Shown piece after piece: positions 1-35,863 of a DNA stretch of 35,863 bases (positions are counted from its first letter, which is position 1; the number at the start of each line of letters is the position of its first letter). A program made the translations under genes and the position numbers. Source of the stretch: a virus (lineage: Duplodnaviria; Caudoviricetes); IMG/VR virus record IMGVR_UViG_3300015203_000018, positions 1 through 35,863 of that record. One strand, given 5' to 3'. The notes beneath the pieces were generated by a model. It saw only the letters and a list, made by a program, of their open reading frames with translations, was not told the DNA's origin and searched no databases.

Positions 1-1256
1 CGGGTAAATATATCGTCGCGTGCCGTCTTAGATACATCACCATTGACTAACTCTACTGTATGGCGTTCTGCTAAATGGTTCACGATCATCTGCATAGCAA
101 ACTTAAATGGCGCAAAGATAATTACCTTACCCTGTGCGCCTTCCACTAGTTCGTCTAGAGCATCTAAGCGAGACTTAGGGTTTAGGTATACCGCATTGCC
201 CGCATCGTCTTTTACTACTCCGCACATTATCTGTTGCAGTTTAACTAACTTAACTGCTGCATTGACCGCGCTAATTTCTACTTCTTCATCTTCGTGCCGC
301 ATCTTCGCCTTAACCGCATCGAATACCGTTTTTTGTTCGTGCGACATTGAACACATACGATCATTGTACGTTACTGGCGGTAGGTGGCTTAGACATTGTT
401 CTTTAGTAAATCGTATCGCAGGCTGCATTAGCCCCATAACCCTTTCAGTTGCGCCGTCCCTCGGTACCCACTTATAAGGCCCGCGTTGTCGCATTAGGGT
501 TTCTTGGAATAACTTGAAGCTAGCTGGTATCGCTTCTGGACATACTAGTTTAATCAAGCCGTACGCATCTGTCGGAGCGTTAGGGGTTGGCGTACCCGTA
601 AGTAGCCACAGCCTAGTATCCGCCCCTATAATCTGTTTAAGCTTTTTGTATCTTTTATTCTGTGGATTACAATACGCACTTGCTTCGTCTATGATAATAA
701 GGTCGGGCTTCCACTGTTCTAGCTGCTTATTAATTGTGACCACACCATCGAAGTTAATTATCGCCAATTCTTTAGCGGATGAAATTAACTCTATCTTCTT
801 CTCGCGCTTACCTACTAACGTAGTTACGTTTAGGTGGGGCAACGTACTAAATGCTTCTTTAGCCCATACGTTCATCACGCTTACGGGGCAGATAACTAAC
901 ACCCGCTTGATACGTCCGCGCTGCCTAAGATAGTCCATAGCCCACAGTGCAGCGGCGGTCTTACCTGTACGCATGGCGTTGAAGCAGAAACACCTACGAT
1001 GCAGCGTTAGAAACTCCGCTGTCGTAACTTGGTGCCGCATTGGCGTATATCGGCCAGTAAACGTAAAGCCGTCATACAGTAACGGGCTAGGGGCATCCAT
1101 GCCCAAGTTACGTAGTACCTTCGCAGCTTCCAGTGTATGTTTAACCGCTACTATGTTATGGCCCTTAAAGCGCAAAAACTTAGCGTGCGGCATTACATCC
1201 AAAATAGGCTGGGGGTAATCTACCGATAAGACTAGCGCACCGTTACGTACTAGCAT
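1..1256 (-). CDS. SNF2-like (SF2) DNA helicase, 3' end truncated by the window edge
   Basis: Missed by the ORF track. Manual translation from ATG at 1256: MLVRNGALVLSV...MRHQVTTAEFLTLHRRCFCFNAMRTGKT (motif I)...RVLVICPVSV (Ia)...LIIIDEAS (II)...WLLTGTP (III). The plus-strand ORFs here are antisense shadows. Confidence 0.92.
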   Translation of the reverse strand, partial: MLVRNGALVLSVDYPQPILDVMPHAKFLRFKGHNIVAVKHTLEAAKVLRNLGMDAPSPLLYDGFTFTGRYTPMRHQVTTAEFLTLHRRCFCFNAMRTGKTAAALWAMDYLRQRGRIKRVLVICPVSVMNVWAKEAFSTLPHLNVTTLVGKREKKIELISSAKELAIINFDGVVTINKQLEQWKPDLIIIDEASAYCNPQNKRYKKLKQIIGADTRLWLLTGTPTPNAPTDAYGLIKLVCPEAIPASFKLFQETLMRQRGPYKWVPRDGATERVMGLMQPAIRFTKEQCLSHLPPVTYNDRMCSMSHEQKTVFDAVKAKMRHEDEEVEISAVNAAVKLVKLQQIMCGVVKDDAGNAVYLNPKSRLDALDELVEGAQGKVIIFAPFKFAMQMIVNHLAERHTVELVNGDVSKTARDDIFT

Positions 1257-1551
1257 AGGACTCTAGCGCTGCTTTAAGGTACTGTATACTATGCTCGTCT
1301 ACTACCATGTAGGTTCCCTTATGCTTCTGTACCTTAGCCATCCATGCTAACTGCATTTCTGTTTGCTTGTTCCTACCAAACTTCGTTTCTATTTCTAGGT
1401 ACCGTCCATAGGCGCAGCACACAAAGTCTGATACGCCAACCCTACCGAACCCACTTGCGCTGGGCATGTGGTACAAGATACCTAACTCTTTCAGTATCTC
1501 TATTACGTCCTGCTTAACGTGCGCTTCCTTCTCGTAGGTTCTACGCATCAT
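1243..1551 (-). CDS. VRR-NUC domain nuclease
   Basis: E..VK..VI..LK...GVSDFVCC..GRYLEIETK...QTEMQ is a VRR-NUC PD-(D/E)xK pattern, and the gene sits next to the SNF2 helicase. Start taken at ATG 1551, which has a GGAG RBS and overlaps the upstream stop (ORF track gives 1569). Confidence 0.85.
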   Translation of the reverse strand: MMRRTYEKEAHVKQDVIEILKELGILYHMPSASGFGRVGVSDFVCCAYGRYLEIETKFGRNKQTEMQLAWMAKVQKHKGTYMVVDEHSIQYLKAALESYAST

Positions 1552-1847
1552 GTATGCTCCGCTACCCATTTAGCGTACGCCGCATCTACGTCTATCTTGT
1601 AGAGCGCCGCATCCGCCGCTGGTGATCCTGATACGTCACAGTCCCGCAGTATATCTAACTTAAGTCCGTCTACATAATTAAATATAGGACTCTGCGGCTT
1701 CGGATCGGGGAACGTAAAGCGTAAACCTATGTTACATACTTCCTCACTATGCCATACTTCGATTTCTGTTTTCTCTGCCGTATACCCTAGCCCGCTAAGT
1801 GCTAGAATAATCTGCTCTGCGTATAAATTTGCCGTGCTAATAAACAT
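1548..1847 (-). CDS. hypothetical protein
   Basis: 99 aa ORF tightly packed in the minus-strand operon, with a GAGG RBS. Confidence 0.7.
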   Translation of the reverse strand: MFISTANLYAEQIILALSGLGYTAEKTEIEVWHSEEVCNIGLRFTFPDPKPQSPIFNYVDGLKLDILRDCDVSGSPAADAALYKIDVDAAYAKWVAEHT

Positions 1848-1849
1848 AT

Positions 1850-2131
1850 TTATCCCTCAGTTGGGCTTGCATACCATTGCGCTACAAGGTGGTATAATCC
1901 GTCTACGGTTAGCGCGTCTAATTCTTCCTGTTCTTCGGGGCTGGATGCTGTAGTCTTTTCAAAGGCTAGGAAAGCCTCGTCTATTTCTTCTGTCCTACTT
2001 TGTATTTCTTCGTAAGGCCCATGTTGCAAGGAGCGTATAGCAGCACTAAGCCATTCGTATCTATGCTCTAGCCCTAGAGCTATACCCATAGAAGCGTATT
2101 GGCAGAATATTGTTTGCTGTTCGGGGGTCAT
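1850..2131 (-). CDS. hypothetical protein
   Basis: 93 aa ORF whose start overlaps the upstream stop (TAATG). Confidence 0.7.
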   Translation of the reverse strand: MTPEQQTIFCQYASMGIALGLEHRYEWLSAAIRSLQHGPYEEIQSRTEEIDEAFLAFEKTTASSPEEQEELDALTVDGLYHLVAQWYASPTEG

Positions 2132-3403: not shown

Positions 3404-3419
3404 TTTAGTTCTCCTTTAC

Positions 3420-4313: not shown

Positions 4314-4316
4314 CGT

Positions 4317-4880: not shown

Positions 4881-6812
4881 TTAAGTTTTCGCTTCGCCGT
4901 ATCTAATTGCTGTGCCGCAAGAAACACCTAACGGCAACCCCGGTAGGCAGTCTGGTGTATTGCCCATAATCCTACTAGCGGTTTCTATAAACAGCTTCTC
5001 GCTACCCTCTGGTACCATACATACAAGTTCATCGTATGTAGTCATTACTACTCGGAATATCTTATTAAGCAGTACCTTATGGGTTTTCATTATCCAAGCC
5101 GATAGGGCTTGACAGATATTCTCCGTGACCTTACCCCCAAACAGCTTAACACACTTCCCACCGTCTAGGTAGGTAAGCTGCCCCTCTGGGTCTTTAGCTA
5201 AACCGGGATACTTAATGTAGAGTCCGCCCGGTAGTCTAATACCCGGCGACTTAAATAACGGTTCGTACCCTGCGTATACTATCGGCGTACCTGTAAATGG
5301 AAGCGCTAATTCTTCATCTACGTTACCGTCTAGCAGCGTGTTAACTGCTAGGTTTGCCTGCTTCCAGAATTTAACTACTCCCTTGTAGGTCTGCCTATAC
5401 AGCCTAACGATACTCTCAGCAAACTCTGGCGTTATATTCTTGATACCGCTAGACTTACAATACTCAATAAATCGTGCGGCCCCCATACCGTAGCCTAGTC
5501 CTAGTACGGCTGACTTAGCTATCTGTCTTTCTGCTGGGTGTGTGGCTTCGCTAATCTCTATACCGTAAATCTTAGTACCGAAATATGCATAGATATCGCC
5601 GCCTTCCGCCATTAGTTTTAGCGACTTTGCTTCTTCGCTATCTGGCCCAGCTAATTGCATTCCTAGCCATAGTACTAGCCTGCATTCAATCTGCTTATAG
5701 TCGGCTACTCCTAGTGTGTATGGGTCGGGGGCGTAGATCGCCTTCCGTAGCGTTCCCTTGCGTTTTAGGTTCATGGGGTTGCCCCCGCCGCCATCGTTGC
5801 CGCTGTAGCGCTGCGTGACCTTAGCGCCCGCGTAGTTGTATCCTACAGGCCATAGCCCCCGGCCTGCCGCGTCCCGGTACCGAACGGCCCGCGTTTCTTC
5901 AATGGTACTCTTTAACTCTAGTCGTGCAGCGACTAACGCCTGTACGTCTGGATCGTCATGCTCTAGTAAAGCCTTATGCGCTTCGTCTGTCTTAGCGAAT
6001 GCGTAGGATATTTTACCTGTCTTAGCGGATATCTTCGTAGGCGGTGTGACGCCTAGATTCTCTAAGGCTTCTGCATACTGATTATTAGACATAAGCATAT
6101 CGCGGGACGTAAGCCCTGCATTAGCTAATGCGTCTATTTTATTCTGTTTTACTTCCTCTATATAGCTATCCAGCATATCCCCATCAAGGTATAGCTGCGG
6201 GTCGGTGAACGCTCGTATTGTCCAGTCCAAAGATGATAGTTCTTCCTTTGGGAAGTACGGCATTAACTTCCTAAATATGGCGTTAGTTAGTACTACGTCA
6301 CCCGCCTCTAGCATTTGCTTCTGCTCGTTCCACCGTGGCTCACCAATGGTGTAGTCGGCTAGCCTATCTTCGATATGCTGCGGAAGGTCGCGGTAGTTAT
6401 ACGCCTTAGCTAACTCGTCCATCTTGGTCATGCCGCAAAGCTTCTCGGCCACGTACTTTAATCCGTGCCTAGCTAACTGCGGGCCTAGCAGCGCTCTACT
6501 TAAGCCTAGTGTATCTATATACAGCTTCGGGTATATACCGTAATGGTGCGCTAGGATAAAGCCATCGAATTGTAAGTTATGGCCTACTAGCGCGCATTCC
6601 TCTAGCTTCAGTCTACGTAGCACTGTCTCTGCGTGCCTGTGCGTAACCCACTTCGCAGGGCCACAGTTAATACTAACCCCGAAACCGTGAAGCTTAAACC
6701 GTTCGTCGCGTACATACTTCTCGGTAGTCATATCCTTATTGGATAGACTATAGCCGTCGCCGTAGAATGTTTCTATATCGCAGGTTATGACTCGCACGGA
6801 CAAAGCTCCCAT
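4881..6812 (-). CDS. polA: family A DNA polymerase with 3'-5' exonuclease domain
   Basis: Exo I CDIET, Exo II HNLQFD, motif A DYKQIECR, motif B RQIAKSAVLGLGYG, motif C TTYDELV. The true start may be GTG 6797, which follows GGAG. Confidence 0.95.
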   Translation of the reverse strand: MGALSVRVITCDIETFYGDGYSLSNKDMTTEKYVRDERFKLHGFGVSINCGPAKWVTHRHAETVLRRLKLEECALVGHNLQFDGFILAHHYGIYPKLYIDTLGLSRALLGPQLARHGLKYVAEKLCGMTKMDELAKAYNYRDLPQHIEDRLADYTIGEPRWNEQKQMLEAGDVVLTNAIFRKLMPYFPKEELSSLDWTIRAFTDPQLYLDGDMLDSYIEEVKQNKIDALANAGLTSRDMLMSNNQYAEALENLGVTPPTKISAKTGKISYAFAKTDEAHKALLEHDDPDVQALVAARLELKSTIEETRAVRYRDAAGRGLWPVGYNYAGAKVTQRYSGNDGGGGNPMNLKRKGTLRKAIYAPDPYTLGVADYKQIECRLVLWLGMQLAGPDSEEAKSLKLMAEGGDIYAYFGTKIYGIEISEATHPAERQIAKSAVLGLGYGMGAARFIEYCKSSGIKNITPEFAESIVRLYRQTYKGVVKFWKQANLAVNTLLDGNVDEELALPFTGTPIVYAGYEPLFKSPGIRLPGGLYIKYPGLAKDPEGQLTYLDGGKCVKLFGGKVTENICQALSAWIMKTHKVLLNKIFRVVMTTYDELVCMVPEGSEKLFIETASRIMGNTPDCLPGLPLGVSCGTAIRYGEAKT

Positions 6813-8485: not shown

Positions 8486-8560
8486 TGGTGCGTCCGGTAG
8501 GTGTCGAACCTACGACCCTCGCCGTGTAAAGGCGATGCTCTACCACTGAGCTACGAACGC
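8486..8560 (-). tRNA. tRNA-Val(UAC)
   Basis: GCGTTCG acceptor, D-loop TAGCTCAGTGGTAGAGC, anticodon arm TCGCC-TTTACAC-GGCGA, GGTTCGA T-loop, encoded CCA. Confidence 0.95.
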
Positions 8561-8561: not shown

Positions 8562-8646
8562 TGGTGGGCATGGTCGGAATCGAACCGACACGTATTACTA
8601 CGGCAGATTTTAAGTCTGCTGCGTCTACCTATTCCGCCACACGCCC
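8562..8646 (-). tRNA. tRNA-Leu(UAA)
   Basis: GGGCGTG acceptor, TGGCGGAATAGGTAGACGC, anticodon arm GCAGA-CTTAAAA-TCTGC, long variable arm, GGTTCGATTCC, CCA; 85 nt. Confidence 0.95.
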
Positions 8647-8862
8647 GTTAATCTCTTTCATCTTCTCTGCAAAGTCTAGTATTCTTTCTATGACGGCCCA
8701 TTGACCTGCGGTTAACGTGATAAGCCCCGTACCTTTTCTAGTACCTATCTGATTGGGTTTCTCGTCTATACCTAATTGTATCCGTACGTGGGTGCGTATA
8801 CCTTCTATACTTAAGTCGGTGCATATGCTTCGTTGCTGGAAGCTCTCGGCTGGTAAGCTCAA
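8629..8862 (-). CDS. hypothetical protein (stop codon inside tRNA-Leu)
   Basis: TTG start after AGGAG, overlapping the upstream stop. Confidence 0.55.
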   Translation of the reverse strand: MSLPAESFQQRSICTDLSIEGIRTHVRIQLGIDEKPNQIGTRKGTGLITLTAGQWAVIERILDFAEKMKEINGRVAE

Positions 8863-9404
8863 GCGTGTTCTCCTAATAACTGCGTCAGATTATCTACTAA
8901 CTCCGAATACAGATCGTACTCACTTTCTACCAGCTTCCACGCAGTTAGAATCTTTTTGCCTGCGTATATAGCTTTCGTACTCTCCGACTCCGTACTAAGT
9001 AACGCCCGCAACGAAGCGAACACGTAGTCTAGTACCGGATCGAACGTGGTATACTGTAGGTGCCGTAGGGTTCTACAAAGCTGTAATCTCTGCGCGTCCC
9101 TACGCGGATTATTAATTACGCAAGTTAAGTCTATAAAGTCTACATTAAGCTTATAGCACAGGGCTTTGATTACTAGGTACAATTCTAGATTGTACGCTTT
9201 AAGTACATCCTCTGCCTCTTTCTTACACTTGGGGTGCGGGCAACCTAACACTGCTAGCGTGTTAGCTAAACCTATTTTATTAATCAGCGCACCGTCTATC
9301 GGTTCCTCGGCGGTAATATCTTCCGTTGCTTTACGCGCAAGCGTATCCGCATCCACGCACCATTGCGGGCCTGCTTTGATTCTAGCTATGCTAGTATGTA
9401 TCAT
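8859..9404 (-). CDS. hypothetical protein
   Basis: 181 aa ORF with the phage-typical NTA codon use. Confidence 0.75.
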   Translation of the reverse strand: MIHTSIARIKAGPQWCVDADTLARKATEDITAEEPIDGALINKIGLANTLAVLGCPHPKCKKEAEDVLKAYNLELYLVIKALCYKLNVDFIDLTCVINNPRRDAQRLQLCRTLRHLQYTTFDPVLDYVFASLRALLSTESESTKAIYAGKKILTAWKLVESEYDLYSELVDNLTQLLGEHA

Positions 9405-9482
9405 TTAAATAGCTTCTTTGCGCGGCGTACGTGGCCTAGTGTAATTAGCGAATTGTTTATTCCGAATACTGGGTTCACCCAT
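9405..9482 (-). CDS. small hypothetical peptide MGEPSIRNKQFANYTRPRTPRKEAI
   Basis: Manual translation; AGGAG RBS; fills the gap between neighbouring genes exactly. Confidence 0.4.
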   Translation of the reverse strand: MGEPSIRNKQFANYTRPRTPRKEAI

Positions 9483-9792
9483 TGGAGTTCTCCTGTTCTG
9501 CGGCGATGGCGCGGGCAAGTTCGTGGCGGCAAACCGTTACATGCCTCGATCCATATGGGCCGGAGCTTTCGCCTAGTGCATTGATCCGAGCTTCCCATCT
9601 TTCCAGCAACTCTCGCAGCGACGCAACACTCACTGCCGTCCCCTTCCGCGCAATCTCGGCTTCGGGTTCGCGCTGTGCGATGGCTGCGGCGCATTCTTCA
9701 AGTAGTTCCGTGTCCCCTTCGTCATAGAAGTGTTCTGCCCTACGGCGAATTGAGATGCGTTCGCGCAACCTCGCAATCAGTTCTTCGATCAC
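9475..9792 (-). CDS. hypothetical protein (TpA-poor island)
   Basis: GTG start at 9792 with a GGAGG RBS. The ORF-track extension to 9963 overlaps the upstream gene. Confidence 0.65.
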   Translation of the reverse strand: MIEELIARLRERISIRRRAEHFYDEGDTELLEECAAAIAQREPEAEIARKGTAVSVASLRELLERWEARINALGESSGPYGSRHVTVCRHELARAIAAEQENSNG

Positions 9793-9793
9793 A

Positions 9794-10249
9794 TCAACCT
9801 CCCTTGCGTGCTGCGTCGATGGCCTCGCTTTCTGTTTTGTACCAGCCATCTTGGTATTTTGGCGGGTCGAAGTCTTTAGCGTTTTCCAATCGCACTTTGT
9901 TGGCATATTCGTAGTCGAATGAAGTCCACTCTCCGGTGATGAAATACCGATACCGCTCCGCATCCTCGCGCAACTCCGCTATTTCATCCAACAATGCGCG
10001 CTGTGATTTAGGCGGCTGACATAGTGTCAGGCCACCCTTTGTTACTGCCCACAGGCATCGTGTCCTGTGAGGATGGTTGGGTGGCAACTCCGCGAAGCCT
10101 GCTGCGGCGAGGGCTTTTCTCGCAAACGCGCGGCACTGCGCTCGCGTAGATTCATGGATAGCCGACCACGGCGCACCGTGCCCGTCCTCCCAGTACTGTT
10201 TTGCAATGGACTCGACAACCTCATCCGGTATTTTCGTCGGGTCGGTCAT
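9794..10249 (-). CDS. hypothetical protein (TpA-poor island)
   Basis: Contains LREDAERYRY...IDAA, a pattern common in small accessory genes of proteobacterial phages. Confidence 0.7.
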   Translation of the reverse strand: MTDPTKIPDEVVESIAKQYWEDGHGAPWSAIHESTRAQCRAFARKALAAAGFAELPPNHPHRTRCLWAVTKGGLTLCQPPKSQRALLDEIAELREDAERYRYFITGEWTSFDYEYANKVRLENAKDFDPPKYQDGWYKTESEAIDAARKGG

Positions 10250-10398
10250 GGCTTACTCCTGCTGCAAACTCTGTGGAAAGTGTCGCTAATTACTAAACGC
10301 CACCACCAGATATATTTCCAGTGACGGCGGATTCGGAAGCGGAAGTTCCGGCGGCAGGATGGATTGAACAGGTCGAACGCCTCACGACTTGCATTCAT
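10246..10398 (-). CDS. small basic hypothetical protein
   Basis: ATGA coupling at both ends; MNASREAF... Confidence 0.45.
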   Translation of the reverse strand: MNASREAFDLFNPSCRRNFRFRIRRHWKYIWWWRLVISDTFHRVCSRSKP

Positions 10399-10568
10399 GG
10401 CTTCATCCGCATCCATCGGTTTAGCCTTTTCCACCATTTGTTATGCGCCCGTTCCGCTTTAAGACTCTCTTGATAGTCGATTGCTGCGAGCGCCTCTAGG
10501 ATGCCAACAGGGATGCCGTGACGTATCCTGTCGCTGATTTCTTCGAGCCTTTCGTCTCTCGTAGTCAT
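10395..10568 (-). CDS. small hypothetical protein MTTRDERLEEISDRIRHG...
   Basis: 57 aa by manual translation, ATGA-coupled on both sides; below the ORF-track cutoff. Confidence 0.6.
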   Translation of the reverse strand: MTTRDERLEEISDRIRHGIPVGILEALAAIDYQESLKAERAHNKWWKRLNRWMRMKP

Positions 10569-11017
10569 GGCTTAATCCCCAGTTCGATCAGCGTTTCTTT
10601 GAGTTCGTCGGCGTGGTGCTCTGTGACATTCATCACGATGCCGTTTTCTTCGCATTTGGTAGGGTCTAGTAACCCAGCGTAATCGCGCCATCTTTGTTCC
10701 AATTGTCGTAGCGCATCTACGCTGACTGTCTTGTTGGCAAGTGCGGCATAGTCTTGGTACGCCACCCAATACCCAAACTCGAATCGAACCATTGATGCTT
10801 TCTGTTGGTGCATCGCAAGGTTGTAGCGGGGAACGGTGCCCACGCTGACTGCGCGCGGAGTGTCGGCCTGCGCGGATTCGATCTGTGCGAGTGCGGCGGC
10901 TAAGACTTGCTGCACATCCTCCACCGCAACGATCAGGGTGTTGTGTCCCGTAAGCGGCGATGGATCAAGCTCGCACAAGTCGCGGATTATTTTTGCAATC
11001 AGCGCATCATTGTTCAT
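10565..11017 (-). CDS. hypothetical protein (TpA-poor island)
   Basis: 150 aa in-operon ORF. Confidence 0.7.
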   Translation of the reverse strand: MNNDALIAKIIRDLCELDPSPLTGHNTLIVAVEDVQQVLAAALAQIESAQADTPRAVSVGTVPRYNLAMHQQKASMVRFEFGYWVAYQDYAALANKTVSVDALRQLEQRWRDYAGLLDPTKCEENGIVMNVTEHHADELKETLIELGIKP

Positions 11018-11092
11018 GGTGTCGGCTTCTTTAGTGCCTTCGTGTCCATCATCTTGCCCTCGGTGGTCATGTTTTTCCTTCCTTTGGGTAAT

Positions 11093-12202: not shown

Positions 12203-12278
12203 TGGTGGGCCAGTCTGGAATCGAACCAGAATCAATCCGTTATGAGCGGAACGCTTGTAACCAATAAGCTACAGGCCC
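12203..12278 (-). tRNA. tRNA(CAU), probably lysidine-type tRNA-Ile2 reading AUA
   Basis: GGGCCTG acceptor with C4-G69 and C5-G68 (TilS determinants), anticodon loop CTCATAA, GGTTCGATTCC, CCA. It lacks the initiator GGG/CCC anticodon stem. Confidence 0.9.
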
Positions 12279-14584: not shown

Positions 14585-14620
14585 AAAAGAAAAGCGGCCT
14601 AGCTATTAACTAGGCCGCTT
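14585..14620 (-). terminator. Rho-independent terminator
   Basis: AAGCGGCCTAG-TTAATAG-CTAGGCCGCTT followed by TTCTTTT on the minus strand. Confidence 0.9.
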
Positions 14621-14643: not shown

Positions 14644-15063
14644 TTAAGCCTCACCGACCTCGATTTCGTCGGGATTGGTTTCGGTTGCTTCGTCCTCGCT
14701 GGCGGTATCCGCTTCCGTACGCGGGCCAGCGTGCCATACCACAAGCTCCGGCTTGCCGCTGGTGTTGCCCTGTGCATCTGGCTCACCGTTCGGGTAATAC
14801 CGGCTCACAATCTTGATTTTCTGGCGCTTCGCAGTCATAGCAAGCGCACTCTGGCGCTGCCGTGCCTTACGCTCTGCATCCTGCGCCACCGATAACACTG
14901 TGCCATCCTCTTTCTTCTGGTTGGCCTTGCCTTCAATGCTCAGTGCGAAGCTATCGCCCTGCGACAGTCCACTGAAATTGTACTTCGGGGTACGCGGTGC
15001 GAAGTGCGCTTCACGCTTCGGGATCGGTACGCCTTTACGGACTACGATAGTAAAATCACTCAT
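14644..15063 (-). CDS. putative DNA-binding protein with an acidic tail, likely highly expressed
   Basis: RKGVPIP...KYNF..L..GDSF is a pattern common in small phage DNA-binding proteins. The gene has its own promoter and terminator and TpA-poor codons. Confidence 0.7.
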   Translation of the reverse strand: MSDFTIVVRKGVPIPKREAHFAPRTPKYNFSGLSQGDSFALSIEGKANQKKEDGTVLSVAQDAERKARQRQSALAMTAKRQKIKIVSRYYPNGEPDAQGNTSGKPELVVWHAGPRTEADTASEDEATETNPDEIEVGEA

Positions 15064-19593: not shown

Positions 19594-20709
19594 TTAGTAT
19601 GTGAAGCCATAGTTACTACCGCAGTTACCCGCGTACCATGCGCGGTGCTGTATATTCTTTGCAAACTTCCGATACCGTTTAACTGGCAACCCTAGTGCCG
19701 CGATAAACTCTAGGAAGCGTTTAGTATCATATTGCCAGTCATTATCGGTAGTCCTGCTACCTGTTGGCAAGTCACGCTCGTATACCGGCAGACTGTAATC
19801 ATTATCCGCGATACGCTTTTCGATCATAGCGCAGTACGCGATAACGAAACTAATGTATAGCTCGTAATCCTTTACCTGCTTAGGTGCTTGAAAACATCTA
19901 AACTCTAACGTACCGCCACCATGATACGAAGTGCGTAGTATTCTACAATTGCCCGCACAGTCCATCCTACCCTGTATATCCAGCAAGCTTTTCGGCTTCG
20001 CTTGCGTACCGTATATGTTTGCATCGGCCCATTGCATCGGCCTTGCATTGCGGCTATCGGCAAAGTAACTAAATGCCCTGCTAATGTATGGACGGTACAG
20101 CATATCCGCTAGCGTAGTCTGAGTAAACATGTCCGCGCTATATCCAAAGTTACTTAACCCTACATGGATATGTGCGCCACCGCCCGCTGTATGTTGGCTA
20201 GTATGCGACAATCCCGCACTTCGTATTACCTTATCCAGATAACCCGCACTTGCACTAAATGTAGCGTAGTCACTACATGGGTTAGTAGGAATCTCTACGC
20301 ATCCGCAATCTGTATCTATCCGCCAGTATCTAGCCCGGATATCATCCGGCATGTTCTCCACTAACGCATTTACTGTCCGGCGGTGATACAGCTCCATGTG
20401 GTAGTAATCCGTTGCATGTTCTCCACTATACTTAACCGGAAAAGGCGCAGTCCATGTTAGCTCTACGCCTAGTGTATGTGGGAAAGGTTGCGCAGTTTGC
20501 TCCATTGTCGCTGGTAATGGGGTTAGCTTAGTGCGCCGAATTGTGCGACGGCTTGGCGGTCGCCATTTACTACCACCGAATAGGCTAGGCCAAGTATCCG
20601 TTAGTTCAGTAAGGGTAAGGATAGGCTGTAGCCAGTCAAACCTATTGGGTTCGGTGTCCCACGGATTAACTACTGCAAGTAACTGCGGCTTGATTGTGGA
20701 AGTTTGCAT
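19594..20709 (-). CDS. putative amidoligase (COOH-NH2 ligase, glutamate-cysteine ligase fold)
   Basis: TLGVEL, DCGCVEIPT, GGAHIHVG, TLEFR. Start taken at ATG 20709 with a GGAG RBS (ORF track gives 20772). Confidence 0.8.
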   Translation of the reverse strand: MQTSTIKPQLLAVVNPWDTEPNRFDWLQPILTLTELTDTWPSLFGGSKWRPPSRRTIRRTKLTPLPATMEQTAQPFPHTLGVELTWTAPFPVKYSGEHATDYYHMELYHRRTVNALVENMPDDIRARYWRIDTDCGCVEIPTNPCSDYATFSASAGYLDKVIRSAGLSHTSQHTAGGGAHIHVGLSNFGYSADMFTQTTLADMLYRPYISRAFSYFADSRNARPMQWADANIYGTQAKPKSLLDIQGRMDCAGNCRILRTSYHGGGTLEFRCFQAPKQVKDYELYISFVIAYCAMIEKRIADNDYSLPVYERDLPTGSRTTDNDWQYDTKRFLEFIAALGLPVKRYRKFAKNIQHRAWYAGNCGSNYGFTY

Positions 20710-20743
20710 GATACTGACTCCGATTGGGTTTAGGTTGTGGGGT

Positions 20744-20956
20744 TTACTCTGCCGCGTGCCAGTCTGCCGCATTGTCTTGTGTTATGTATCCATAATCGTA
20801 TAGGCCATGCTTAATTGGGATACTGAATTGCCCCGGCCTTGTTTTCCACGTCTTTGTTTTACCGTTGCGACGTGCGCGCATAGGCGTTCCATCCGCATTA
20901 CGTACTGTGTTATGCGTAAAGCGATTCGCGATGATGCTAGTTTCGTAACTAATCAT
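20744..20956 (-). CDS. small conserved phage early protein
   Basis: RRNGKTKTWKTRP..F.IPIKHGLY; start GGAGCATTACC-ATG at 20956. Confidence 0.7.
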   Translation of the reverse strand: MISYETSIIANRFTHNTVRNADGTPMRARRNGKTKTWKTRPGQFSIPIKHGLYDYGYITQDNAADWHAAE

Positions 20957-21030
20957 GGTAATGCTCCAATAGGTTAATTTACCACTAACGGGTCGGCAGA
21001 ATTGCCGGGTATCCGTCTGCCGCACTATCT

Positions 21031-21500
21031 GGAAACAGGAAACATGGCACAAGCTTGAAACGTGCTACAGATTATACGCCCCTATCCTGAAACAGGAAAC
21101 AGGGCACAAGCTTGAAACAGGAAACAAGCACGCACTAGGATGAAACAGGAAACAGCGAATTCTACAGATGGAGTTTGTAACAATGAAACAGCCGTCCTGC
21201 CTAGCTTGTAGCTTTGTAGCATCGCTGGCGACAAGGTAGGAAAGTCTTTAGAGGGTACAGATAACTGTTTCTGTTTCATTACAGTGCAAGGGTAGTGTAA
21301 GAATAGTGCGGAATAAATCATATATGCGCTGTAGTTTTCACGAAACAATGCAACAATGCTACAAACTAATAGCAGCATGGCTATCCTTGTTTCTGAACAT
21401 GCTACAAACTGAAACAAACACAATGCCGCAACACGAAACCCGCACTAATTGGAAACAGGAAACCGCGCACTAAGACGAAACAAGAAACAACGAAACAGAA
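21031..21500. repeat. array of about 20 GAAACA-like boxes (iteron- or operator-like)
   Basis: GAAACAGGAAAC doublets, GGCACAAGCTTGAAAC x2, and inverted TGTTTC copies near 21265, 21272 and 21388. Confidence 0.85.
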
Positions 21501-22197: not shown

Positions 22198-22809
22198 ATG
22201 TCTGCCGTGCCTTCCAGCCCTACTACCTTTACTGACTCACTCCCGGCCAGAGCGCGAAACCTGCGCTTTAGGTATGTAGGGAGTCCGTACCAATTCCTAG
22301 ACGAACTAGGAATCATGGTAATTAAGGAGTACATATATAAAGGCGCTATGATTATCGACGTAGCGGAAGCGTTAAACGTCCCCGTTACCGTCTTGAAAAC
22401 ATGGATCAACGAGAATAATCACGAAGCAGATATAGAAGAAGCATCTATACTCTCTGCCGAAGGCTACATACGTACGGGTGAGCAGCTACTTAAGGCAGCT
22501 ACAAATGCGTTTGAGTTGAATAAGGCTAAGGCTATTATTGAACATGGACGCTTTATGGCTAGCAAGAAGGATAAGAAAACCTACGGGAACCAGATCGAAG
22601 TAACAGGTGGCCCAGCACAGGTTCATTATATCTTCTCTATACCGGCATCCGCACCGCAGATACTAGACGCTAAAGCGCCAGAAGTACCGCTAATAGAAGC
22701 TGAGTACAACATCATGCCGCGCCTAGACCTGACAGCGCTTGGACTACCGCCTAAAGAGGCATCTAGCGTACTGCACAGCGGGGTACGGCCTGTGGAGGTA
22801 CCGGAATGA
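22198..22809 (+). CDS. terS: terminase small subunit
   Basis: HTH IIDVAEALNVPVTVLKTWI and FMASKKDKKTYG (Sf6 gp1-like); directly upstream of TerL. The ORF-track TTG at 22114 is the -35 box. Confidence 0.8.
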   Translation: MSAVPSSPTTFTDSLPARARNLRFRYVGSPYQFLDELGIMVIKEYIYKGAMIIDVAEALNVPVTVLKTWINENNHEADIEEASILSAEGYIRTGEQLLKAATNAFELNKAKAIIEHGRFMASKKDKKTYGNQIEVTGGPAQVHYIFSIPASAPQILDAKAPEVPLIEAEYNIMPRLDLTALGLPPKEASSVLHSGVRPVEVPE

Positions 22810-24305
22810 GCGCGACACCAGAAGCTATACCGCCACAGCCTACCCAGGAGCAGTACTCGTCTACGACTAAAAAGACGTTTACCTATGTAGCAGAGCCGAC
22901 GTTAGCCCTGTTGCATAACGATAGGAACGTACAGGTTCAGTACATCGAAGGGCCGTTCGGTAGCGGTAAGAGTACTGGCTGCATCATGGAGATACTTATG
23001 CGGGCGATGCGGCAGAAGCCGTATCAGGGCGTGCGTAAGAGTCGTTGGGCTATTATTAGAAATACGTACCCAGAGCTAAAAACAACTACAATCAAGACCT
23101 TCCAAGAGTGGATACCTAATAGTATAGCGCCTATAGTCTACTCCATGCCTATCGTGTGTAACTTCAAGCAGAAGCTACAGGACGGTACTATAATGGGGCT
23201 ACAGGTGTACTTCATGGCGTTGGACACGCCAGAGGACGTAGCGAAGCTACTTAGCTTGGAGCTAACGGGGGCGTACATAAATGAGGCCCGCGAGGTACCG
23301 TGGGAGATAGCCGAGGGTCTGTTAGGCCGTATAGATCGGTTTCCGCGAGTAGATGAAGGTGGGGCGAGTGAGCCGGGGCTACTGCTAGATAGCAACCCGC
23401 CACGTACGAACCATTGGACGTATATCAAGTTTGAGACAGGCGAGACACCTGTAGGGTGGAGGAAATATAAGCAACCGCCTGCGGTGTTCATGGATCAGGC
23501 TACAGGCGCGTGGGTATGTAATCCAGATGCGGAGAACCTAACCCACCTTAGCCAGAACTACTACCAGAATCAGTTAGCGCTAGGCGAAGAACATATCCGC
23601 GTTAACTTAGCGGGTGAGTTCGGCATGAGCCGTAAGGGCAAGCCGGTGTTTAGTAAGTTTAGTGAGACAAGGCATGTTAGTAAAGAAGTTTTACTACCAC
23701 AGCGGGGTATAAGTATCCTATTAGGTATCGACTTCGGGCTAACGCCGGGAGTAGTTATAGCGCAGCTTGGGTATAAAGGGATAGTACTGCTAGACGAGTT
23801 ACCGGCTACAGATGAGTCCCTAGAGGACTTCCTAGATGAATACGTACTGCCCTTACTACGTTCTAAGTATCAGGGATACGCAGTCGTGGCGTGCGGCGAC
23901 CCAGCAGGCAGCGGTAGGCAGAGCATTAATAAGATGACTAGTATCGGCGCGATGAATCAGCGCGGGATAAAAACATACCCAGCTATAACTAACGTGTTCC
24001 AGAAGCGTAAGGAAGCGGTAGATTTCTTTCTGGGTAGGGATGAAGGGTTCGTTGTAAGTAAGCACTTGACGCACGTACGAGAGGCGTTAGGGGCGGGATA
24101 TGTCTATAAAGAACAACGCAACGCAAACGGTAAGACGTTAGATATCCCAGATAAGAACGAGTTTAGCCACATAGCAGATGCTATCCAGTACCTATGCCTA
24201 TACGCTAGATACGGGGGCGGTAGCCTTGCCAGAGCCGTTGGATCGGGGGGAAGCCGCGCCGCAGGGGGCGATAGCAAGCCGGGAGGCGGGTTCCTGTGGG
24301 CTTGA
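22806..24305 (+). CDS. terL: terminase large subunit
   Basis: Walker A GPFGSGKS, Walker B AYINEA, DSNPP, nuclease GIDFG...SHIADA. Confidence 0.95.
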   Translation: MSATPEAIPPQPTQEQYSSTTKKTFTYVAEPTLALLHNDRNVQVQYIEGPFGSGKSTGCIMEILMRAMRQKPYQGVRKSRWAIIRNTYPELKTTTIKTFQEWIPNSIAPIVYSMPIVCNFKQKLQDGTIMGLQVYFMALDTPEDVAKLLSLELTGAYINEAREVPWEIAEGLLGRIDRFPRVDEGGASEPGLLLDSNPPRTNHWTYIKFETGETPVGWRKYKQPPAVFMDQATGAWVCNPDAENLTHLSQNYYQNQLALGEEHIRVNLAGEFGMSRKGKPVFSKFSETRHVSKEVLLPQRGISILLGIDFGLTPGVVIAQLGYKGIVLLDELPATDESLEDFLDEYVLPLLRSKYQGYAVVACGDPAGSGRQSINKMTSIGAMNQRGIKTYPAITNVFQKRKEAVDFFLGRDEGFVVSKHLTHVREALGAGYVYKEQRNANGKTLDIPDKNEFSHIADAIQYLCLYARYGGGSLARAVGSGGSRAAGGDSKPGGGFLWA

Positions 24306-26875: not shown

Positions 26876-28933
26876 ATGGACAATAGCACTAACCCACTAC
26901 TTACTAAAGGCGATAATCCGTTAACATCTTACGGACTAGGCCAGATATCGAATGTAGAAATACAGAACGCTTTAGCAAAACATGTAAATACGCAATTCGA
27001 TAAGAATAAGCAGCATCGAATGATGCGCGGCGTAACCGATAGGTTACTGCGTAATCTTAGAGCTAAACGGTGCGAGTATCAGCCAGATGAAAAGGCATTG
27101 CTGGGGCCATATAATGATATCTACGTAGGCATAGCGGCGCTAAAGGCGCGGGCAGCCGAATCGTGGCTAATAGATATCATACTTAATAATATAGATAAGC
27201 CGTGGACATTAACCCCTTCGGTAGAACCTGATTTGCCAGATAGGCTTAAAGAGCAGATTATAGACGTATTATTAATGGAGCTTCCAGAGTTTAAGACTTT
27301 CGATGCGCTTAGGGATAGGACACAGCAGTTAAAATCAGCGGTACAGAGTATAGCCGTACAGCAGGCTACGGCATCCGTACAGCGAATGGAAACCCATATA
27401 GAAGCACAGCTTACAGAAGGTGGGTGGACAGATACATTTAGTAAATTCATTTCAGACCTTACGGTGTACCCCACAGCGATTATACGCGGGCCAATAGCAG
27501 TAGGTAAGCCCACCCCCGATTGGGACGGCGATAAGTTTACTGTTAAGACTCAATCAGTGCTGTCTACTCGCGTAGTAAGTCCATTTAATGCGTACCCAGC
27601 GCCTAATTGTTCTAGCGCACAGGATGGCGATAACTTCATCGAAGCGATAGAGTATACGCATTCCGATATACACGATTTAATAGGCGTACCATCGTTCTTA
27701 GAATCGAATATACGACAAGTACTAGAACGCTACAAAGATGGATATGCGCCTACTCGTATAGAGGATTCCCCGAAGAAAGCGCTAGAAGGTAAAGAACAGC
27801 CAATAAGCGTACACACCACAGGACTAGAAGTACGTATATATAATGGTAAGATAAAGGGTAAATTACTAGCCGATAATGGGGTAATCATAGATGATCTACA
27901 AAAATCATATGAAGCGGAGATTTGGGTTATTGGCGAGTACGTTATTCGTGCTGTGCTTAATCCTAACCCATTGGGTAAGCGCCCTGTATACAGTACCTCA
28001 TATGTAAAGATTAATAACTCGTTTTGGGGACAGGCCGTAATAGATACCGTGTACGACCTTATGCGCGTATGCAATGCGGCGTGTAGGGCAACAGTACGAA
28101 ATATGGGGTATTCCAGCGGGCCTATAGGTGAAGTAGTAGCCGATAGGTTAGCTGATGGGGAGACAGGCGCAGAGCTAGAACCCTATAAGATATTCCAAGT
28201 ACAGCCTGATCTAACAGGTACAGGCGCACCGGCTTTCAGGTTCCATAATGTAGGAGTAATAGCTGGAGAGCTTAAGCTAATCTTCGAGTACTATATGAAG
28301 TTAGCAGATGATATGTCTGGGGTACCCGCATACGTATTAGGTAATCCACAAGTAGCAGGAGCCGGTAGAACACTTGGCGGACTGTCGATGCTGATGGGTA
28401 ATGCAGCTAAGGGGATTAAGAACGTACAACTTAATATAGACCGTGATATCATTACAGGAGTAGTCGAAGCATATTATTTCTATAACATGGCGGTATCTGA
28501 CGATATAGGCATTAAGTCCGACGCTAAGGTAGTAGCGCGTGGCGCTACGGGTCTACTACAACGCGAGTTAGCGCAGACCAAGACCGTAGAGATACTGCAA
28601 CTGCTTACTCCATACGCACAGGCGGGCCTTGTAACTCCTACAGGTATAGAGTATCTACTCAGGGAAGTGCTGAAAGGCACAGGTATGGATATAGATAAGA
28701 TAATACCTAACCCAGACAAATCGCAGCAAACTAACGAGTTAGGTACGTTATTCGGCGGACAGGGGCAAACCCCATCCCCAGCACCGCCACCGATGCAAGG
28801 AGGGCCACAAGCGCCAGCGCTTAATACTGGCACTAATACTCCCCCTAATCTACCAGCACAAAGCCAGCCACCAGCAACACCTAGTAACTTAGCGCCATTT
28901 CCAAGACCTTTAAACGTCGCACAAGGAGCGTAA
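26876..28933 (+). CDS. portal protein
   Basis: 685 aa; position before the scaffold and capsid; LADDMSGVPAY..G...GAGRTLGGLSMLM portal-type segment; Pro/Gln-rich tail. Confidence 0.85.
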   Translation: MDNSTNPLLTKGDNPLTSYGLGQISNVEIQNALAKHVNTQFDKNKQHRMMRGVTDRLLRNLRAKRCEYQPDEKALLGPYNDIYVGIAALKARAAESWLIDIILNNIDKPWTLTPSVEPDLPDRLKEQIIDVLLMELPEFKTFDALRDRTQQLKSAVQSIAVQQATASVQRMETHIEAQLTEGGWTDTFSKFISDLTVYPTAIIRGPIAVGKPTPDWDGDKFTVKTQSVLSTRVVSPFNAYPAPNCSSAQDGDNFIEAIEYTHSDIHDLIGVPSFLESNIRQVLERYKDGYAPTRIEDSPKKALEGKEQPISVHTTGLEVRIYNGKIKGKLLADNGVIIDDLQKSYEAEIWVIGEYVIRAVLNPNPLGKRPVYSTSYVKINNSFWGQAVIDTVYDLMRVCNAACRATVRNMGYSSGPIGEVVADRLADGETGAELEPYKIFQVQPDLTGTGAPAFRFHNVGVIAGELKLIFEYYMKLADDMSGVPAYVLGNPQVAGAGRTLGGLSMLMGNAAKGIKNVQLNIDRDIITGVVEAYYFYNMAVSDDIGIKSDAKVVARGATGLLQRELAQTKTVEILQLLTPYAQAGLVTPTGIEYLLREVLKGTGMDIDKIIPNPDKSQQTNELGTLFGGQGQTPSPAPPPMQGGPQAPALNTGTNTPPNLPAQSQPPATPSNLAPFPRPLNVAQGA

Positions 28934-29326: not shown

Positions 29327-29329
29327 TGT

Positions 29330-30293: not shown

Positions 30294-31223
30294 ATGCCAA
30301 TTCCCGCCGCAGCCGGTTATCCGCAATATAGTAATAACCTTATAACTCCCCTCTTTAGGATGGAGTTGTTAGAGCGCTTTTATTCAACCACAGTGTATAG
30401 CGACGTATCGACTACAGAGTATACGGGTGAATTGAGTAAGGGCGGCGATCAGATTACCTTCATGCGTGAGCCGAAGGTAGCCGTGCGTGATTACGATAAG
30501 AACGGCAAGATCATACATGATACGATCGACGGTGATCCGATCACTATGACGATAGATAACGCTAAGACGTTCTCTATTAAGATGAATCTGATCGACGAAA
30601 AGCAAATCCAGAACTTCGAGAACTGGAAAGCAGCGTTCTTAAAGAGTGCAGGCTACGAGTTAGCGCGTGCCATTGACCCGCAGTTACTTACGGCAATGTG
30701 GACTAGCGTAGCATCGTACAATCAGGGCGCTACCGCAGGCTTAGTATCCGCAAATGTTAATTTAGGAACCGCAGGCGCTCCAGTAGCGATTACTAAAAAT
30801 AACGTCATAGACGTACTGCAACAGGTACAACAGGTACTTGACGAAGCGTTAGCTCCACGCGAAGGACGGTTTATTGTACTTCCGTCAGCAGGTATGACGG
30901 CACTTAAGAGTAGTGAACTGCGCTTTGCATACGGTACTGCGTTAAGTACTACTCCGTCATTGAACGGTAAGGTACCAGAAGTAGTTGCTGGGTTCATCAT
31001 CTTAGAGTCACAGAATGTACCTTCGGTCATTGATGGTGCCGTACGTGCGTACCATATCGTAGCCGGTGTAAAGATGGCAACCGCATTCGCGGCGCAGATC
31101 GAGAACAGTCGCGTAGTTACCGATAAAGACGACTGGGCAAACTACTATCAGGGCTTATCGGTGTACGGGTTTAAGGTGCTGTACCCAGATGCGTTAGTAC
31201 ACCTGTACGCTAACTTCGCCTAA
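30294..31223 (+). CDS. major capsid protein
   Basis: Y.GE....GD.I..., TID.AK.F, P.EGRFIVLP, G.V..VAGF.I.ES.N.P, GLSVYGFKVLYP; host-like codon usage. Confidence 0.9.
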   Translation: MPIPAAAGYPQYSNNLITPLFRMELLERFYSTTVYSDVSTTEYTGELSKGGDQITFMREPKVAVRDYDKNGKIIHDTIDGDPITMTIDNAKTFSIKMNLIDEKQIQNFENWKAAFLKSAGYELARAIDPQLLTAMWTSVASYNQGATAGLVSANVNLGTAGAPVAITKNNVIDVLQQVQQVLDEALAPREGRFIVLPSAGMTALKSSELRFAYGTALSTTPSLNGKVPEVVAGFIILESQNVPSVIDGAVRAYHIVAGVKMATAFAAQIENSRVVTDKDDWANYYQGLSVYGFKVLYPDALVHLYANFA

Positions 31224-31810: not shown

Positions 31811-31822
31811 TAGGGGGGTGGT

Positions 31823-32734: not shown

Positions 32735-32749
32735 CTGGGAGTAAGTAAA

Positions 32750-32950: not shown

Positions 32951-32971
32951 CCACCAAGATAGGTACCAGCG

Positions 32972-33676: not shown

Positions 33677-34344
33677 GTACTGCCCCTAGCACTATATCAT
33701 TCCAAGATATGACGCAGCTAGAAACGCTGCTACGTCACGTAGTACCCATCGTGCCGGAATTACCGCACGGTATGGCGTTAGACAGGTTACGGCAGGCGTA
33801 TATAGAGTTTGCTAGGCGTTCTGGATTAATCGTAGCCAAGTTGGTATTAGATTATCAGGCGGGAGTTACGGACTACGAGCTAGTGCCGCCTGACGGATAC
33901 GAGATATACATGACGCAGGGCGTAGAGCATCATAACGGCTTCTACTGGTACGATGGTACAGCGGGGTACATAGGCGGGCTACAGGGTAGCTGGGGCAACG
34001 TATTCCCCGGCAACTCCGGCTTTCGTATGACTAGTAACCGTACGCTATGCCTTAACCATACACCTACAGCCGATCAGGTAGGCGGGATAAAAGTATACGT
34101 AACGCTATTACCTACCGAATGCGTTAGCGAAATACCTGTAGCGGTGTCCGTACCGTACGGCGATGGTATAGCACGTAGGGTAATATCCGACGCATTACGT
34201 ATCCCGAACAAAGGCTGGACAAATCCAGCGCTAGCTAAAGGGTACGAAATGGAGTTTAATAGAACCGTGCTATCGGCCAAACAATTAGCTAGCAGAAACT
34301 TGCAACGTGGGCCGCTTGTCGCTAGGCCAGTGAGAATACTGTGA
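33673..34344 (+). CDS. second adaptor/tail tubular protein
   Basis: V.P.VPELP..MAL..LRQA.IEF.RRS...L.IPNK.WTNP.LA. Confidence 0.7.
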   Translation: MSTAPSTISFQDMTQLETLLRHVVPIVPELPHGMALDRLRQAYIEFARRSGLIVAKLVLDYQAGVTDYELVPPDGYEIYMTQGVEHHNGFYWYDGTAGYIGGLQGSWGNVFPGNSGFRMTSNRTLCLNHTPTADQVGGIKVYVTLLPTECVSEIPVAVSVPYGDGIARRVISDALRIPNKGWTNPALAKGYEMEFNRTVLSAKQLASRNLQRGPLVARPVRIL

Positions 34345-34670
34345 CTAAACCTAATCGACTCGGATATATCACGGTAAGCAAGAAACAGCCGTTTTTTACG
34401 ATCTATGTTCAGGTCGTAAAACTAAACGACGTTACTACTTCGGGGGCTACTGGACTATCGGTAACTAGGCTAGGCGATACAGCGCCATGCGCCAACTATA
34501 GCCCGTTGCTTATAGATACGAATGCTAATAGCTTTCAGTTCGCTATAAATAGCTTAGTTACTAGTAAGGCAGGTGGAAGGTATCAAGGCGTGCTTACCTA
34601 TAAGGGTACAGTGCTAGGTACTTTCCCATTTGTATTCGATAAACCTAATCCAGTATTAGTAGGTGCATAA
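34341..34670 (+). CDS. virion/tail protein
   Basis: Beta-rich 109 aa protein, GTGA-coupled. Confidence 0.6.
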   Translation: MTKPNRLGYITVSKKQPFFTIYVQVVKLNDVTTSGATGLSVTRLGDTAPCANYSPLLIDTNANSFQFAINSLVTSKAGGRYQGVLTYKGTVLGTFPFVFDKPNPVLVGA

Positions 34671-35158
34671 TGTTTAAGCCCGTACACGGAGTAAGAGGCA
34701 GTTTAACTGCGCCAATTAATACAATGGCTACGTCATTGCTATTAGACGATGCTACGGTATGCCTACTTAAAAATATGCTGTCCGGTAGTGACTATACCTA
34801 CTTGATGATTCAGACAGGGTATAATTACGAGATAGTAAAGACCGTATCTTTTACTGGTAATGCATTAAACGTAGTCCGCGCTCAAGACGCTACGATAGCG
34901 CAGTCATTCCCAAGCGGGGCTAGTGTAGTATTCGTACTTAGCCAATCAGCCATAGACGATATAGTGAGCCAACAGAATATAGGGCAGATTCAGATTACGG
35001 GAGCCGGTATAGTAACAGTCACAGAGATAGCGCCTAATCAATTCAGTATCTCGGCCCCTATGATTAATATAACGAGTGATTCCGAAAAAATACTCGTAGG
35101 CGGGGAATTTCCTAACTTCGTAATTTCGAGTCCGCTATTATCCGACTGCTGTGATTAA
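34670..35158 (+). CDS. tail-associated protein, paralog 1
   Basis: EIVK...VVRAQD.T.A..F.SG, typical of tail fibre or spike N-terminal attachment domains. Confidence 0.65.
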   Translation: MFKPVHGVRGSLTAPINTMATSLLLDDATVCLLKNMLSGSDYTYLMIQTGYNYEIVKTVSFTGNALNVVRAQDATIAQSFPSGASVVFVLSQSAIDDIVSQQNIGQIQITGAGIVTVTEIAPNQFSISAPMINITSDSEKILVGGEFPNFVISSPLLSDCCD

Positions 35159-35863
35159 GGTACTATATAATGCTATAGGTACATTAGTAGCGACGATCTT
35201 AGAGAATACTACGGTACTCTCTGTAGATTCGACGTTACAGGCAACCTTACTTTCCGCGATAGGTACAGGAGATTGGACGTACTTAGCTATAGATAATGGC
35301 GATAGCGTAGAGGTAGTAAAGATATATAGGGTAGATTCTTCGGGGCTGCGGGTAATACGCGCACAGGACAATACCCTAGCTAGGAAGTTTGCGGCGGGTA
35401 CGCCAATAGCATATAGGCTTACGGCAGCAGAGATTAGGGATTCAATAATAGCGCCGCCGTTAATTTTATTGCCCTACGGCGGCATAGACATAAATGGACG
35501 CGAAGTAAGTTACTTTCAGATAACTATAGAGGGGCTAGGTGGAGCGTTCGCTACTGCTAGCGAGAACGATGTTAGATTAGGTAGGAATGAACAAGCGTAT
35601 GGATGCTGTAGCCTAGATAACCCAGGAATACCGCCGATAGGCCCGCCGTATGAGTATTTAACTAGTCAACTCTACCCAATAGAAGCGGAAGATGGTTACG
35701 AGTGCGTAACTGCGCTACTAGCAGGACTGGTACAAGGCGTTAATAGGGATGCGTACGAAACAGATACAGCGCTAACAGGTGGGGCACTTAGAGCGATAGT
35801 ACAGGTATACGATATGCCTCGTACGGATGCGTACGAAACAGATACAGCTCTAACAGGAGGCGA
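35151..35863 (+). CDS. tail-associated protein, paralog 2, truncated by the window edge
   Basis: Missed by the ORF track. Open from GTG 35151: MIKVLYNAIGTL...DWTYLAI...EVVK...VIRAQDNTLARKFAAG...YLTSQLYPIE...DAYETDTALTGG x2. Confidence 0.8.
   Translation, partial: MIKVLYNAIGTLVATILENTTVLSVDSTLQATLLSAIGTGDWTYLAIDNGDSVEVVKIYRVDSSGLRVIRAQDNTLARKFAAGTPIAYRLTAAEIRDSIIAPPLILLPYGGIDINGREVSYFQITIEGLGGAFATASENDVRLGRNEQAYGCCSLDNPGIPPIGPPYEYLTSQLYPIEAEDGYECVTALLAGLVQGVNRDAYETDTALTGGALRAIVQVYDMPRTDAYETDTALTGG
35747..35857 (+). repeat. 33-bp direct repeat with 78-bp period (DAYETDTALTG)
   Basis: GGATGCGTACGAAACAGATACAGC(G/T)CTAACAGG at 35747 and 35825. Confidence 0.9.

Follow-up and report, generated by a model that had tools for sequence, protein, structure and literature searches.

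Few features of genomes are as general as the shortage of the dinucleotide TpA, the cause of which is unsettled. The stretch studied here raises the question of why a phage would carry this step in excess, and what wrote it. The stretch, called the window, is the 35,863 nucleotides of the IMG/VR record IMGVR_UViG_3300015203_000018 (Caudoviricetes, from soil); it covers 58% of a virus genome of ~63 kb and belongs to a podophage. The odds ratio rho*(TA), given below as TA, was found to be 1.44 at 48.6% GC over the whole window, which contained 3412 TA steps, or one per 10.5 bp. The usual deficit of TpA is thus genuinely and strongly reversed here, and the reversal was found to extend to most of the close relatives in its phage clade, which contain TA pairs at up to twice the frequency of other phages. 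Our tentative answer, held with confidence a little short of even, is that the excess was written by the family A DNA polymerase (PolA) that the phage itself encodes, through a bias toward certain nearest neighbours.

The preliminary description, made from the letters of the window, had proposed a genome-wide TpA enrichment with a bias to NTA codons, and both were confirmed. Its hand counts were exact (16 TA at 1141-1260, and 14 TA with 2 TG at 27601-27720). TA of at least 1.10 was found in 35 of the 36 blocks of 1 kb, the sole low block being 10001-11000 (0.66). The other odds ratios of the window were 0.82 for CA/TG, 0.77 for GA/TC, 1.33 for GC and 1.19 for CG. In the 62 called genes, GTA supplied 446 of the 752 Val codons, CTA and TTA together 518 of the 905 Leu codons, and ATA 295 of the 621 Ile codons. 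The excess survived correction for base and amino acid composition, as the T|A junction between codons was observed 1425 times against 844 expected (z 36) in 300 within-gene synonymous shuffles that kept protein and codon usage fixed. A shift of the amino acids toward Tyr was absent or small, and the non-coding DNA of the window (3239 bases) contained TA of 1.35.

In a conditional synonymous-choice model, a single TA term (ln 1.54) was enough for 897 of the 1076 log-likelihood units won by all ten symmetric dinucleotides. Any silent choice that creates an adjacent TA was thus preferred ~4.7-fold, and 83% of the effect of dinucleotides can be ascribed to this preference. When the codon intercepts were left free, the TA term for the junction alone was ln 1.82, followed by -0.16 for T-n-A and -0.04 for T-nn-A, so the effect is strictly adjacent. 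CTAG, GTAC and TTAA had also been described as abundant; in order-2 Markov ratios TTAA reached 1.20, whereas the abundance of CTAG (0.95) and GTAC (1.03) is a mere product of TA and is fully accounted for by shorter words. Clustering or periodicity of TA was not found in the window, with lag autocorrelation of at most 0.04 and mild gene-level variation only. Runs of 10 or more numbered 26 against 19.5 in simulations and the longest was 20 against 17.6, which indicates no islands. Neither islands, nor phasing at 10 bp, nor a longer word as the driver held up in the window, and the feature is described as a diffuse, strand-symmetric TpA excess over positions 1..35863.

Such values were rare in the phages used as background. 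Viral loci collected with a neutral bait (n=79) contained a median TA of 0.69 and a maximum of 1.18, the bait being a 14-mer for which 41 of 120 hits were dropped as too short or unlisted, and the locus counts including near-duplicates. A TA-rich bait gave 3 of 62 loci at TA 1.4 or above, and two of these three showed a different, CA-specific pattern. T7, T5, SP6 and SPO1 were found at 0.89-0.99. In a survey of 4969 phages, Demerecviridae are called high-TpA at 0.96 against 0.77 for the others (PMC11409064), whereas the present clade reaches 1.44-1.75. A full-text literature search, in which subscription papers were thinly covered and by which priority is not established, found no description of a TpA-enriched phage clade. 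The trait resembles the genomic dinucleotide signature of Karlin in being pervasive, strand-symmetric, lineage-specific and weak in an imported island; unlike that signature, which is cited in PMC11526014, it has the sign of TpA reversed and one step carries the bias. Two other patterns were met among unrelated phages. The siphophage fragments L273 and L296 contained TA of 1.8-1.9 with CA/TG of 0.32-0.37 and normal GA, a very strong CpA-to-TpA signature, and a C5-methyltransferase was not found within the fragments examined. A second group (L260, L266, L270, L280 and L298; G018) contained TA of 1.25-1.35 with CA and GA both at 0.55-0.67 and AA raised, a joint purge of GA and CA.

The excess was found to follow descent. 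Five complete, syntenic relatives of 62-64 kb (G001 to G005) contained TA of 1.24, 0.90, 1.25, 1.11 and 1.25, the value of 0.90 belonging to G002, the TA-normal relative. A sixth complete relative contained 1.26, followed by partial relatives at 1.64-1.75 with 57-59% GC, and the relatives overall span 0.90-1.75. In a tree of the large terminase (22806..24305, plus strand), which served as clade marker, a clade of 15 rows (support 100) contained TA of 0.84-1.64, whereas 48 rows outside it contained 0.42-0.93. Loci at a greater distance whose PolA is of the same family (n=70) contained a median of 1.03 and a maximum of 1.20, against the median of 0.69 in the bait loci. Within the clade, the TA trait is inherited by lineage. 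The early arm showed lower TA strength in all five complete relatives, the TA-normal one included, both at codon junctions and within codons. No relative above ~73% nucleotide identity to the window was found in viral and metagenome scans. The closest cultured PolA sequences (~32%) were those of Kochitakasuvirus KPP25/phiR18 and Rhizobium phage RHph_TM3_14A, phages of similar size (61-64 kb), and RHph_TM3_14A also contained the closest major capsid protein (29%). Unlike the clade, KPP25 and RHph_TM3_14A contained TA of 0.62 and 0.70 (50 kb of each), and no transfer RNA (tRNA) was found in those stretches.

The shape of the force was read from the other dinucleotides. Relative to a viral background of similar GC, the window was found to be shifted by -0.35 in CA, -0.29 in GA and -0.34 in AA, where a pure-TA vector predicts -0.33, and the whole departure from background correlated with that vector at r 0.98. 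Before A, T gained on each of the other bases, by ln 1.5-1.9 against C, 2.4 against G and 2.1 against A. The G/A odds showed no difference between matched 2-fold and 4-fold sites, with no extra drain of G where G-to-T is silent. The effects of flanking bases were found to mirror between strands, the small asymmetries being common to the TA-normal relative, and this mirroring supports a cause in duplex DNA, which the self-symmetry of TA could not show. The earlier suggestion that the force acts on DNA stands on the same mirroring, on frame independence and on the presence of the excess in non-coding DNA. Avoidance of pyrimidine dimers formed by ultraviolet light was rejected because it predicts gains of TG/CA, whereas TG/CA fall. 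Weakening of the duplex was discarded in view of the stacking order, GC and CG having risen as well.

The turnover of TA was examined in G003-G005, where the best ln m for TA-changing silent substitutions was about 0, which is approximately neutral. A model of pure gain (+0.5) lost 2.9-5.3 log units and one of pure protection 1.2-4.2 (gamma shape 0.3-0.5). Close pairs with milder bias in the PolA family gave ln m of -0.25 to +0.01. The near-neutral turnover of TA-changing sites disfavours hypermutation into TA and leaves balanced models. Shared-state odds were similar at TA and non-TA sites, and the first rate fits were saturated.

The candidate source of the bias is the PolA gene at 4881..6812 on the minus strand, which encodes a family A DNA polymerase with 3'-5' exonuclease and contains Leu at the 762-equivalent position. 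On the proposed mechanism, the phage PolA would add dA after a primer-terminal dT ~2-fold more readily, whatever the template. TA-creating errors would be raised and TA-destroying errors lowered by an equal factor f, and C, G and A would be treated as equal sources; as the equilibrium odds scale as f squared, f would be about 2.2. The rare codons that result would be offset by phage tRNAs. Such a bias would reproduce the TA features without need for a selective agent. The reading is supported by the trait following both the terminase clade and the polymerase family. It is also supported by a TA-poor island at 9400..11050 (minus strand; rho 0.66, GC 54%), whose genes lack homologues in the five complete relatives. 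The island contained 0 avoided restriction palindromes against 16.7 expected, and being purged yet TA-poor it was counted for the polymerase; it is likely a recent import that is still ameliorating.

Several observations weigh against the polymerase as author of the excess. No polymerase feature was seen to track TA, and the PolA of G002 is 60% identical to that of the window, yet the TA parameter of G002 was 0.0. An insertion inside the ExoIII motif of PolA was present in G002 and absent from G021:C37 (TA 1.26), and this insertion was rejected as the cause because its presence does not track TA. The rate test fits a polymerase bias and weak selection alike and cannot separate them; between the window and G001 it was flat at shape 0.5 or below, near saturation, whereas the comparison of G005 with L005/L057 preferred ln m of -0.3 to -0.9 and the very recent, 99%-identical G012/G015 set gave +0.42 +/- 0.18. 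Within the clade the drop of GA/TC (slope -0.55) was found to exceed the prediction of a pure-TA model. The compared genomes are kin and not independent, and the remaining 42% of the window's genome lies outside the sequence analysed. The insertion itself comprises ~12-27 residues and splits the motif in this clade of polymerases (window 5340-5400, minus strand; PolA residues ~153-172), and it was lost several times in the wider polymerase family. A structure model of PolA was poor (pLDDT 63, from 6 sequences) and was not used.

Other causes had been listed in the preliminary description, among them a context-specific base modification, compensation for a duplex-stabilising modified base, deamination and escape from a defence system. 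A modification of either kind that has gone unrecognised is very improbable as the force favouring TA. The genes suggested for such a search were not found in the five records examined (the window and four complete relatives in each case): PurZ of the adenylosuccinate-synthetase family was absent from 5 of 5 records, although the control matched 14 of 14, and the C5- and N6/N4-methyltransferase, ThyA and FolE families were each absent from 5 of 5. Pfam matches to thymidylate-synthase-like and FolE/Que families were none among 144 proteins of relatives and 50 of the window. The Pfam and PHROG scans recovered only ThyX, pyrophosphatases and an Amidoligase_2-like protein (19594..20772, minus strand), the last being the only enzyme-like modification candidate; it is conserved, but all of these also occur in the TA-normal G002. 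Seven modified-base phages (phiVC8, SH-Ab 15497, S-2L, Xp12, SPO1, M6 and PaMx25), whose modifications comprise Z (in three of them), 5-methylcytosine, 5-hydroxymethyluracil, hypermodified T and products of the queuosine pathway, contained TA of 0.48-0.97, the Z phages and the others alike being TA-poor. Some of them likewise have a family A polymerase, but the pathway genes found in these phages are lacking here. The many small genes without any family and the part of the genome missing from the record leave room for such an enzyme, whereas the heavy avoidance of restriction sites weighs weakly against a protective modification, though M6 avoids sites too. Deamination of CpA/TpG to TpA after cytosine methylation is barely credible. 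The low CA/TG and the somewhat greater drain of C than of A before A agree with it, but GA/TC and AA/TT drop as much as CA/TG, and the gain of T over C, G and A alike excludes CpA deamination as the source, so the earlier remark that deamination alone does not suffice was correct, the transversion gains before A being equal. A phage with a C5-methyltransferase differs from the window (CA -0.90, GA +0.44), as do L273 and L296 with their low CA and normal GA, and the enzyme itself was lacking in the five records. A force on RNA, acting on UpA in transcripts, or mimicry of a TA-rich host is likewise very unlikely. TA is self-complementary, so its own symmetry is no proof of a DNA-level cause, and TA-rich bacteria exist, as in a Bacteroidota metagenome-assembled genome (MAG) with a contig at TA 1.30, one relative being binned with it. 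Against this stand the mirroring of flank effects and of GA/TC depletion between strands, the use of Shine-Dalgarno sites by the phage (35 of the 62 window genes, against 0.08 in the MAG), the preference of the most expressed genes for ATC/CTG, and the nearest ligase and endolysin matches, which are mostly phages of Pseudomonadota.

Selection on the DNA itself has more in its favour. It is possible, though less probable than the polymerase bias, that the clade has been under selection to hold, on average, one TA step in every helical turn of its coding DNA for an unrecognised DNA-level function (mechanics, a reader protein or a restriction refuge), paid for with dedicated tRNAs, so that a second code would lie over the genome. 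Its form as weak selection (~1.5 units of Ns per step) for physical properties of TA, such as bending or opening in packaging, ejection or replication, or for a phage DNA-binding protein, is unlikely taken singly. Equal gains and a turnover close to neutral would follow from it just as from the polymerase bias, and relatives whose polymerases are similar differ in TA strength. According to PMC8476142, the TpA step is flexible and is preferred by H-NS, MvaT and Rok, and a conserved, probably highly expressed gene at 14644 is a candidate for an abundant DNA-binding protein. However, TA showed no phasing or islands, the TA excess is missing from the same-size relative G002, and for the 14644 protein, which is present in G002, no clear match to an established DNA-binding fold was found. 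The form as a refuge from restriction-modification, with silent positions pushed to TA by diffuse selection from a large and changing set of host sites, which seldom contain it, is improbable as the main cause, although the escape from defence proposed earlier was partly borne out by a heavy purge of sites. In the window 31 of the 64 six-base palindromes were nearly absent (22-31 in each relative), followed by CCWGG at 2 of 51, GGWCC at 0 of 38 and several non-palindromic type IIS/IIG-like words. Six-base palindromes with TA were spared (observed/expected 0.90 against 0.21 for the others), and avoided words comprised 6 of 604 testable TA words against 68 of 1412 others (p 7e-6). TA tracked the avoidance of non-TA palindromes in 13 clade sequences (Spearman -0.78), and the make-up of the avoided words correlated with the window signature at r 0.9, which 0 of 1000 random sets reached. 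Yet when a penalty was put on avoided words (75 of the window's own and 204 pooled), the TA term of 1.54 was still 1.44 (~6% lower), and the pure-TA vector fits the departure from background better. The purged island is TA-poor, the avoided words of the TA-rich G001 and G005 show no lack of TA once centred, T7 being the reverse, and four sets outside the clade showed no correlation of TA with avoidance (Spearman -0.30 to +0.07). According to PMC6286503, avoidance does not in general extend to sites of type I and IIG; the near-complete purge of type II-like sites plus CCWGG and GGWCC matches the avoidance described there for lytic dsDNA phages, unlike which it explains so small a part of the TA term here and is complete even in a TA-poor island. 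A refuge may still explain the extra loss of GA/TC. With close relatives spanning TA 0.9-1.75 and a single small polymerase, and with modification genes not recognised in it, the clade makes the cause of TpA shortage directly testable.

The codons created by the TA bias were found to be matched by tRNAs. The window contained tRNA-Val(TAC), which reads GTA, at 8486..8560, tRNA-Leu(TAA), which reads TTA, at 8562..8646, and a tRNA with CAT anticodon at 12203..12278, all on the minus strand. The last contains C4-G69 and C5-G68 pairs and is presumably a lysidine-type Ile2 tRNA reading ATA, by the determinants of that type. Genome-wide, the ATA share of Ile was 0.41-0.48 in genomes with the CAT tRNA and 0.09-0.15 in two without it. 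The tRNAs of the clade were found to contain UNN or CAT anticodons only, matching A-ending codons; five such tRNAs were found in G021:C37 and none in the TA-normal G002.

In the capsid genes, CTA or GTA is kept only where the phage encodes the matching tRNA. CTA was found at 20 of 48 positions with a Leu(TAG) tRNA against 1 of 99 without it, and GTA at 17 of 26 in the window, which has the Val(TAC) tRNA, against 22 of 129 in five relatives without it. G021:C37, a seventh genome checked afterwards, agreed (CTA 14/26, GTA 1/19). In the AT-rich G011, CTA at 0/22 fitted, whereas GTA was found at 9/25 despite no matching tRNA. The match for TTA was mixed, being 11/25 in the window capsid gene but 2/26 in G004, which has the tRNA, and ATA stayed low even with the CAT tRNA. 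It is likely that the phage tRNAs compensate for rare codons created by the TA bias. The same match of anticodon and codon is expected under the hypothesis that phage tRNAs compensate over-used codons; compared with the usual cases, the driver here is a dinucleotide and not low GC, and eight genomes form a codon-by-codon natural experiment. The use of CTA and GTA in the capsid gene goes on or off according to whether the matching tRNA is encoded, and for this reason the question why phages carry tRNAs can be tested unusually cleanly in the clade.

The gene at 14644 had been taken for the major capsid gene, which was wrong, as the major capsid protein is encoded at 30294..31223 on the plus strand (phrog_267, E 1e-39). 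Its junction TA was 37/65, unchanged against 0.56 genome-wide, but CTA was found at 0/25 and ATA at 4/20. The 14644 gene (14644..15063, minus strand) is a TA-poor core gene of 139 amino acids with an acidic tail and a weak DUF7303 match. As had been noted, it relaxes toward ATC/CTG, and so do its orthologues: NTA codons numbered 0-1 in six clade relatives and 4/20 in the window, the strongest host-type codon use among the clade genomes. The product is probably very abundant, and the codon use of this gene and of the capsid gene upholds the view that translational selection opposes the force. In its predicted structure (pLDDT 75.7) no match of Z at least 8 was found among 48,161 chains, the best being Z 5.6 over 45 residues, and the other matches were weak ones to DUF families.

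The use of Shine-Dalgarno sites, the ATC/CTG preference and the ligase and endolysin matches together suggest that the host is a GC-rich pseudomonadote. Searches with the tRNAs and the island were uninformative about the host. The Bacteroidota MAG (L429, which is G021:C1, and L428) is itself TA-rich in places, its contig at 1.30 containing GA of 0.56. The clade member binned into it, of 64.9 kb, was probably placed there by composition, although it uses Shine-Dalgarno sites, and TA-rich phage genomes can thus be misbinned by composition.

The window was found to contain two divergent arms. The leftward arm contained helicase, exonuclease, ligase, PolA, a CsrA-like gene and an AAA ATPase, and the rightward arm contained terminase, lysis genes, portal, capsid and tail genes. 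An atlas search with the conserved protein at 8859-9404 gave nothing usable. The DNA of the window was located in one sequencing run, probably its source, as contigs that supplied no usable variants, and no RNA data set containing it was listed. At the end of the window (35787-35863) the contig of the sequencing run differs at 12 listed places and then continues into other sequence, so that this end looks like a collapsed tail-gene repeat. The gap between the arms (21030-21500) contained a cluster of short A-rich direct repeats with a GAAAC-containing word, a possible origin or packaging region. The word ATTAACTA recurred at 14605, 15785, 20665, 21525, 21665, 21902, 21921 and 30275, several copies being intergenic or directly upstream of genes, the capsid gene included, and may be a phage promoter or operator. 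Among the relatives, the PolA of G001 was found to contain an inserted segment that breaks it close to the C-terminus (L001; G001 53967-56828), and a LAGLIDADG endonuclease gene was found just before the G001 capsid gene (L018:17251-17931), followed by the presence of an Acb2/Tad1-family anti-defence gene in G002 (L023:18910-19155).

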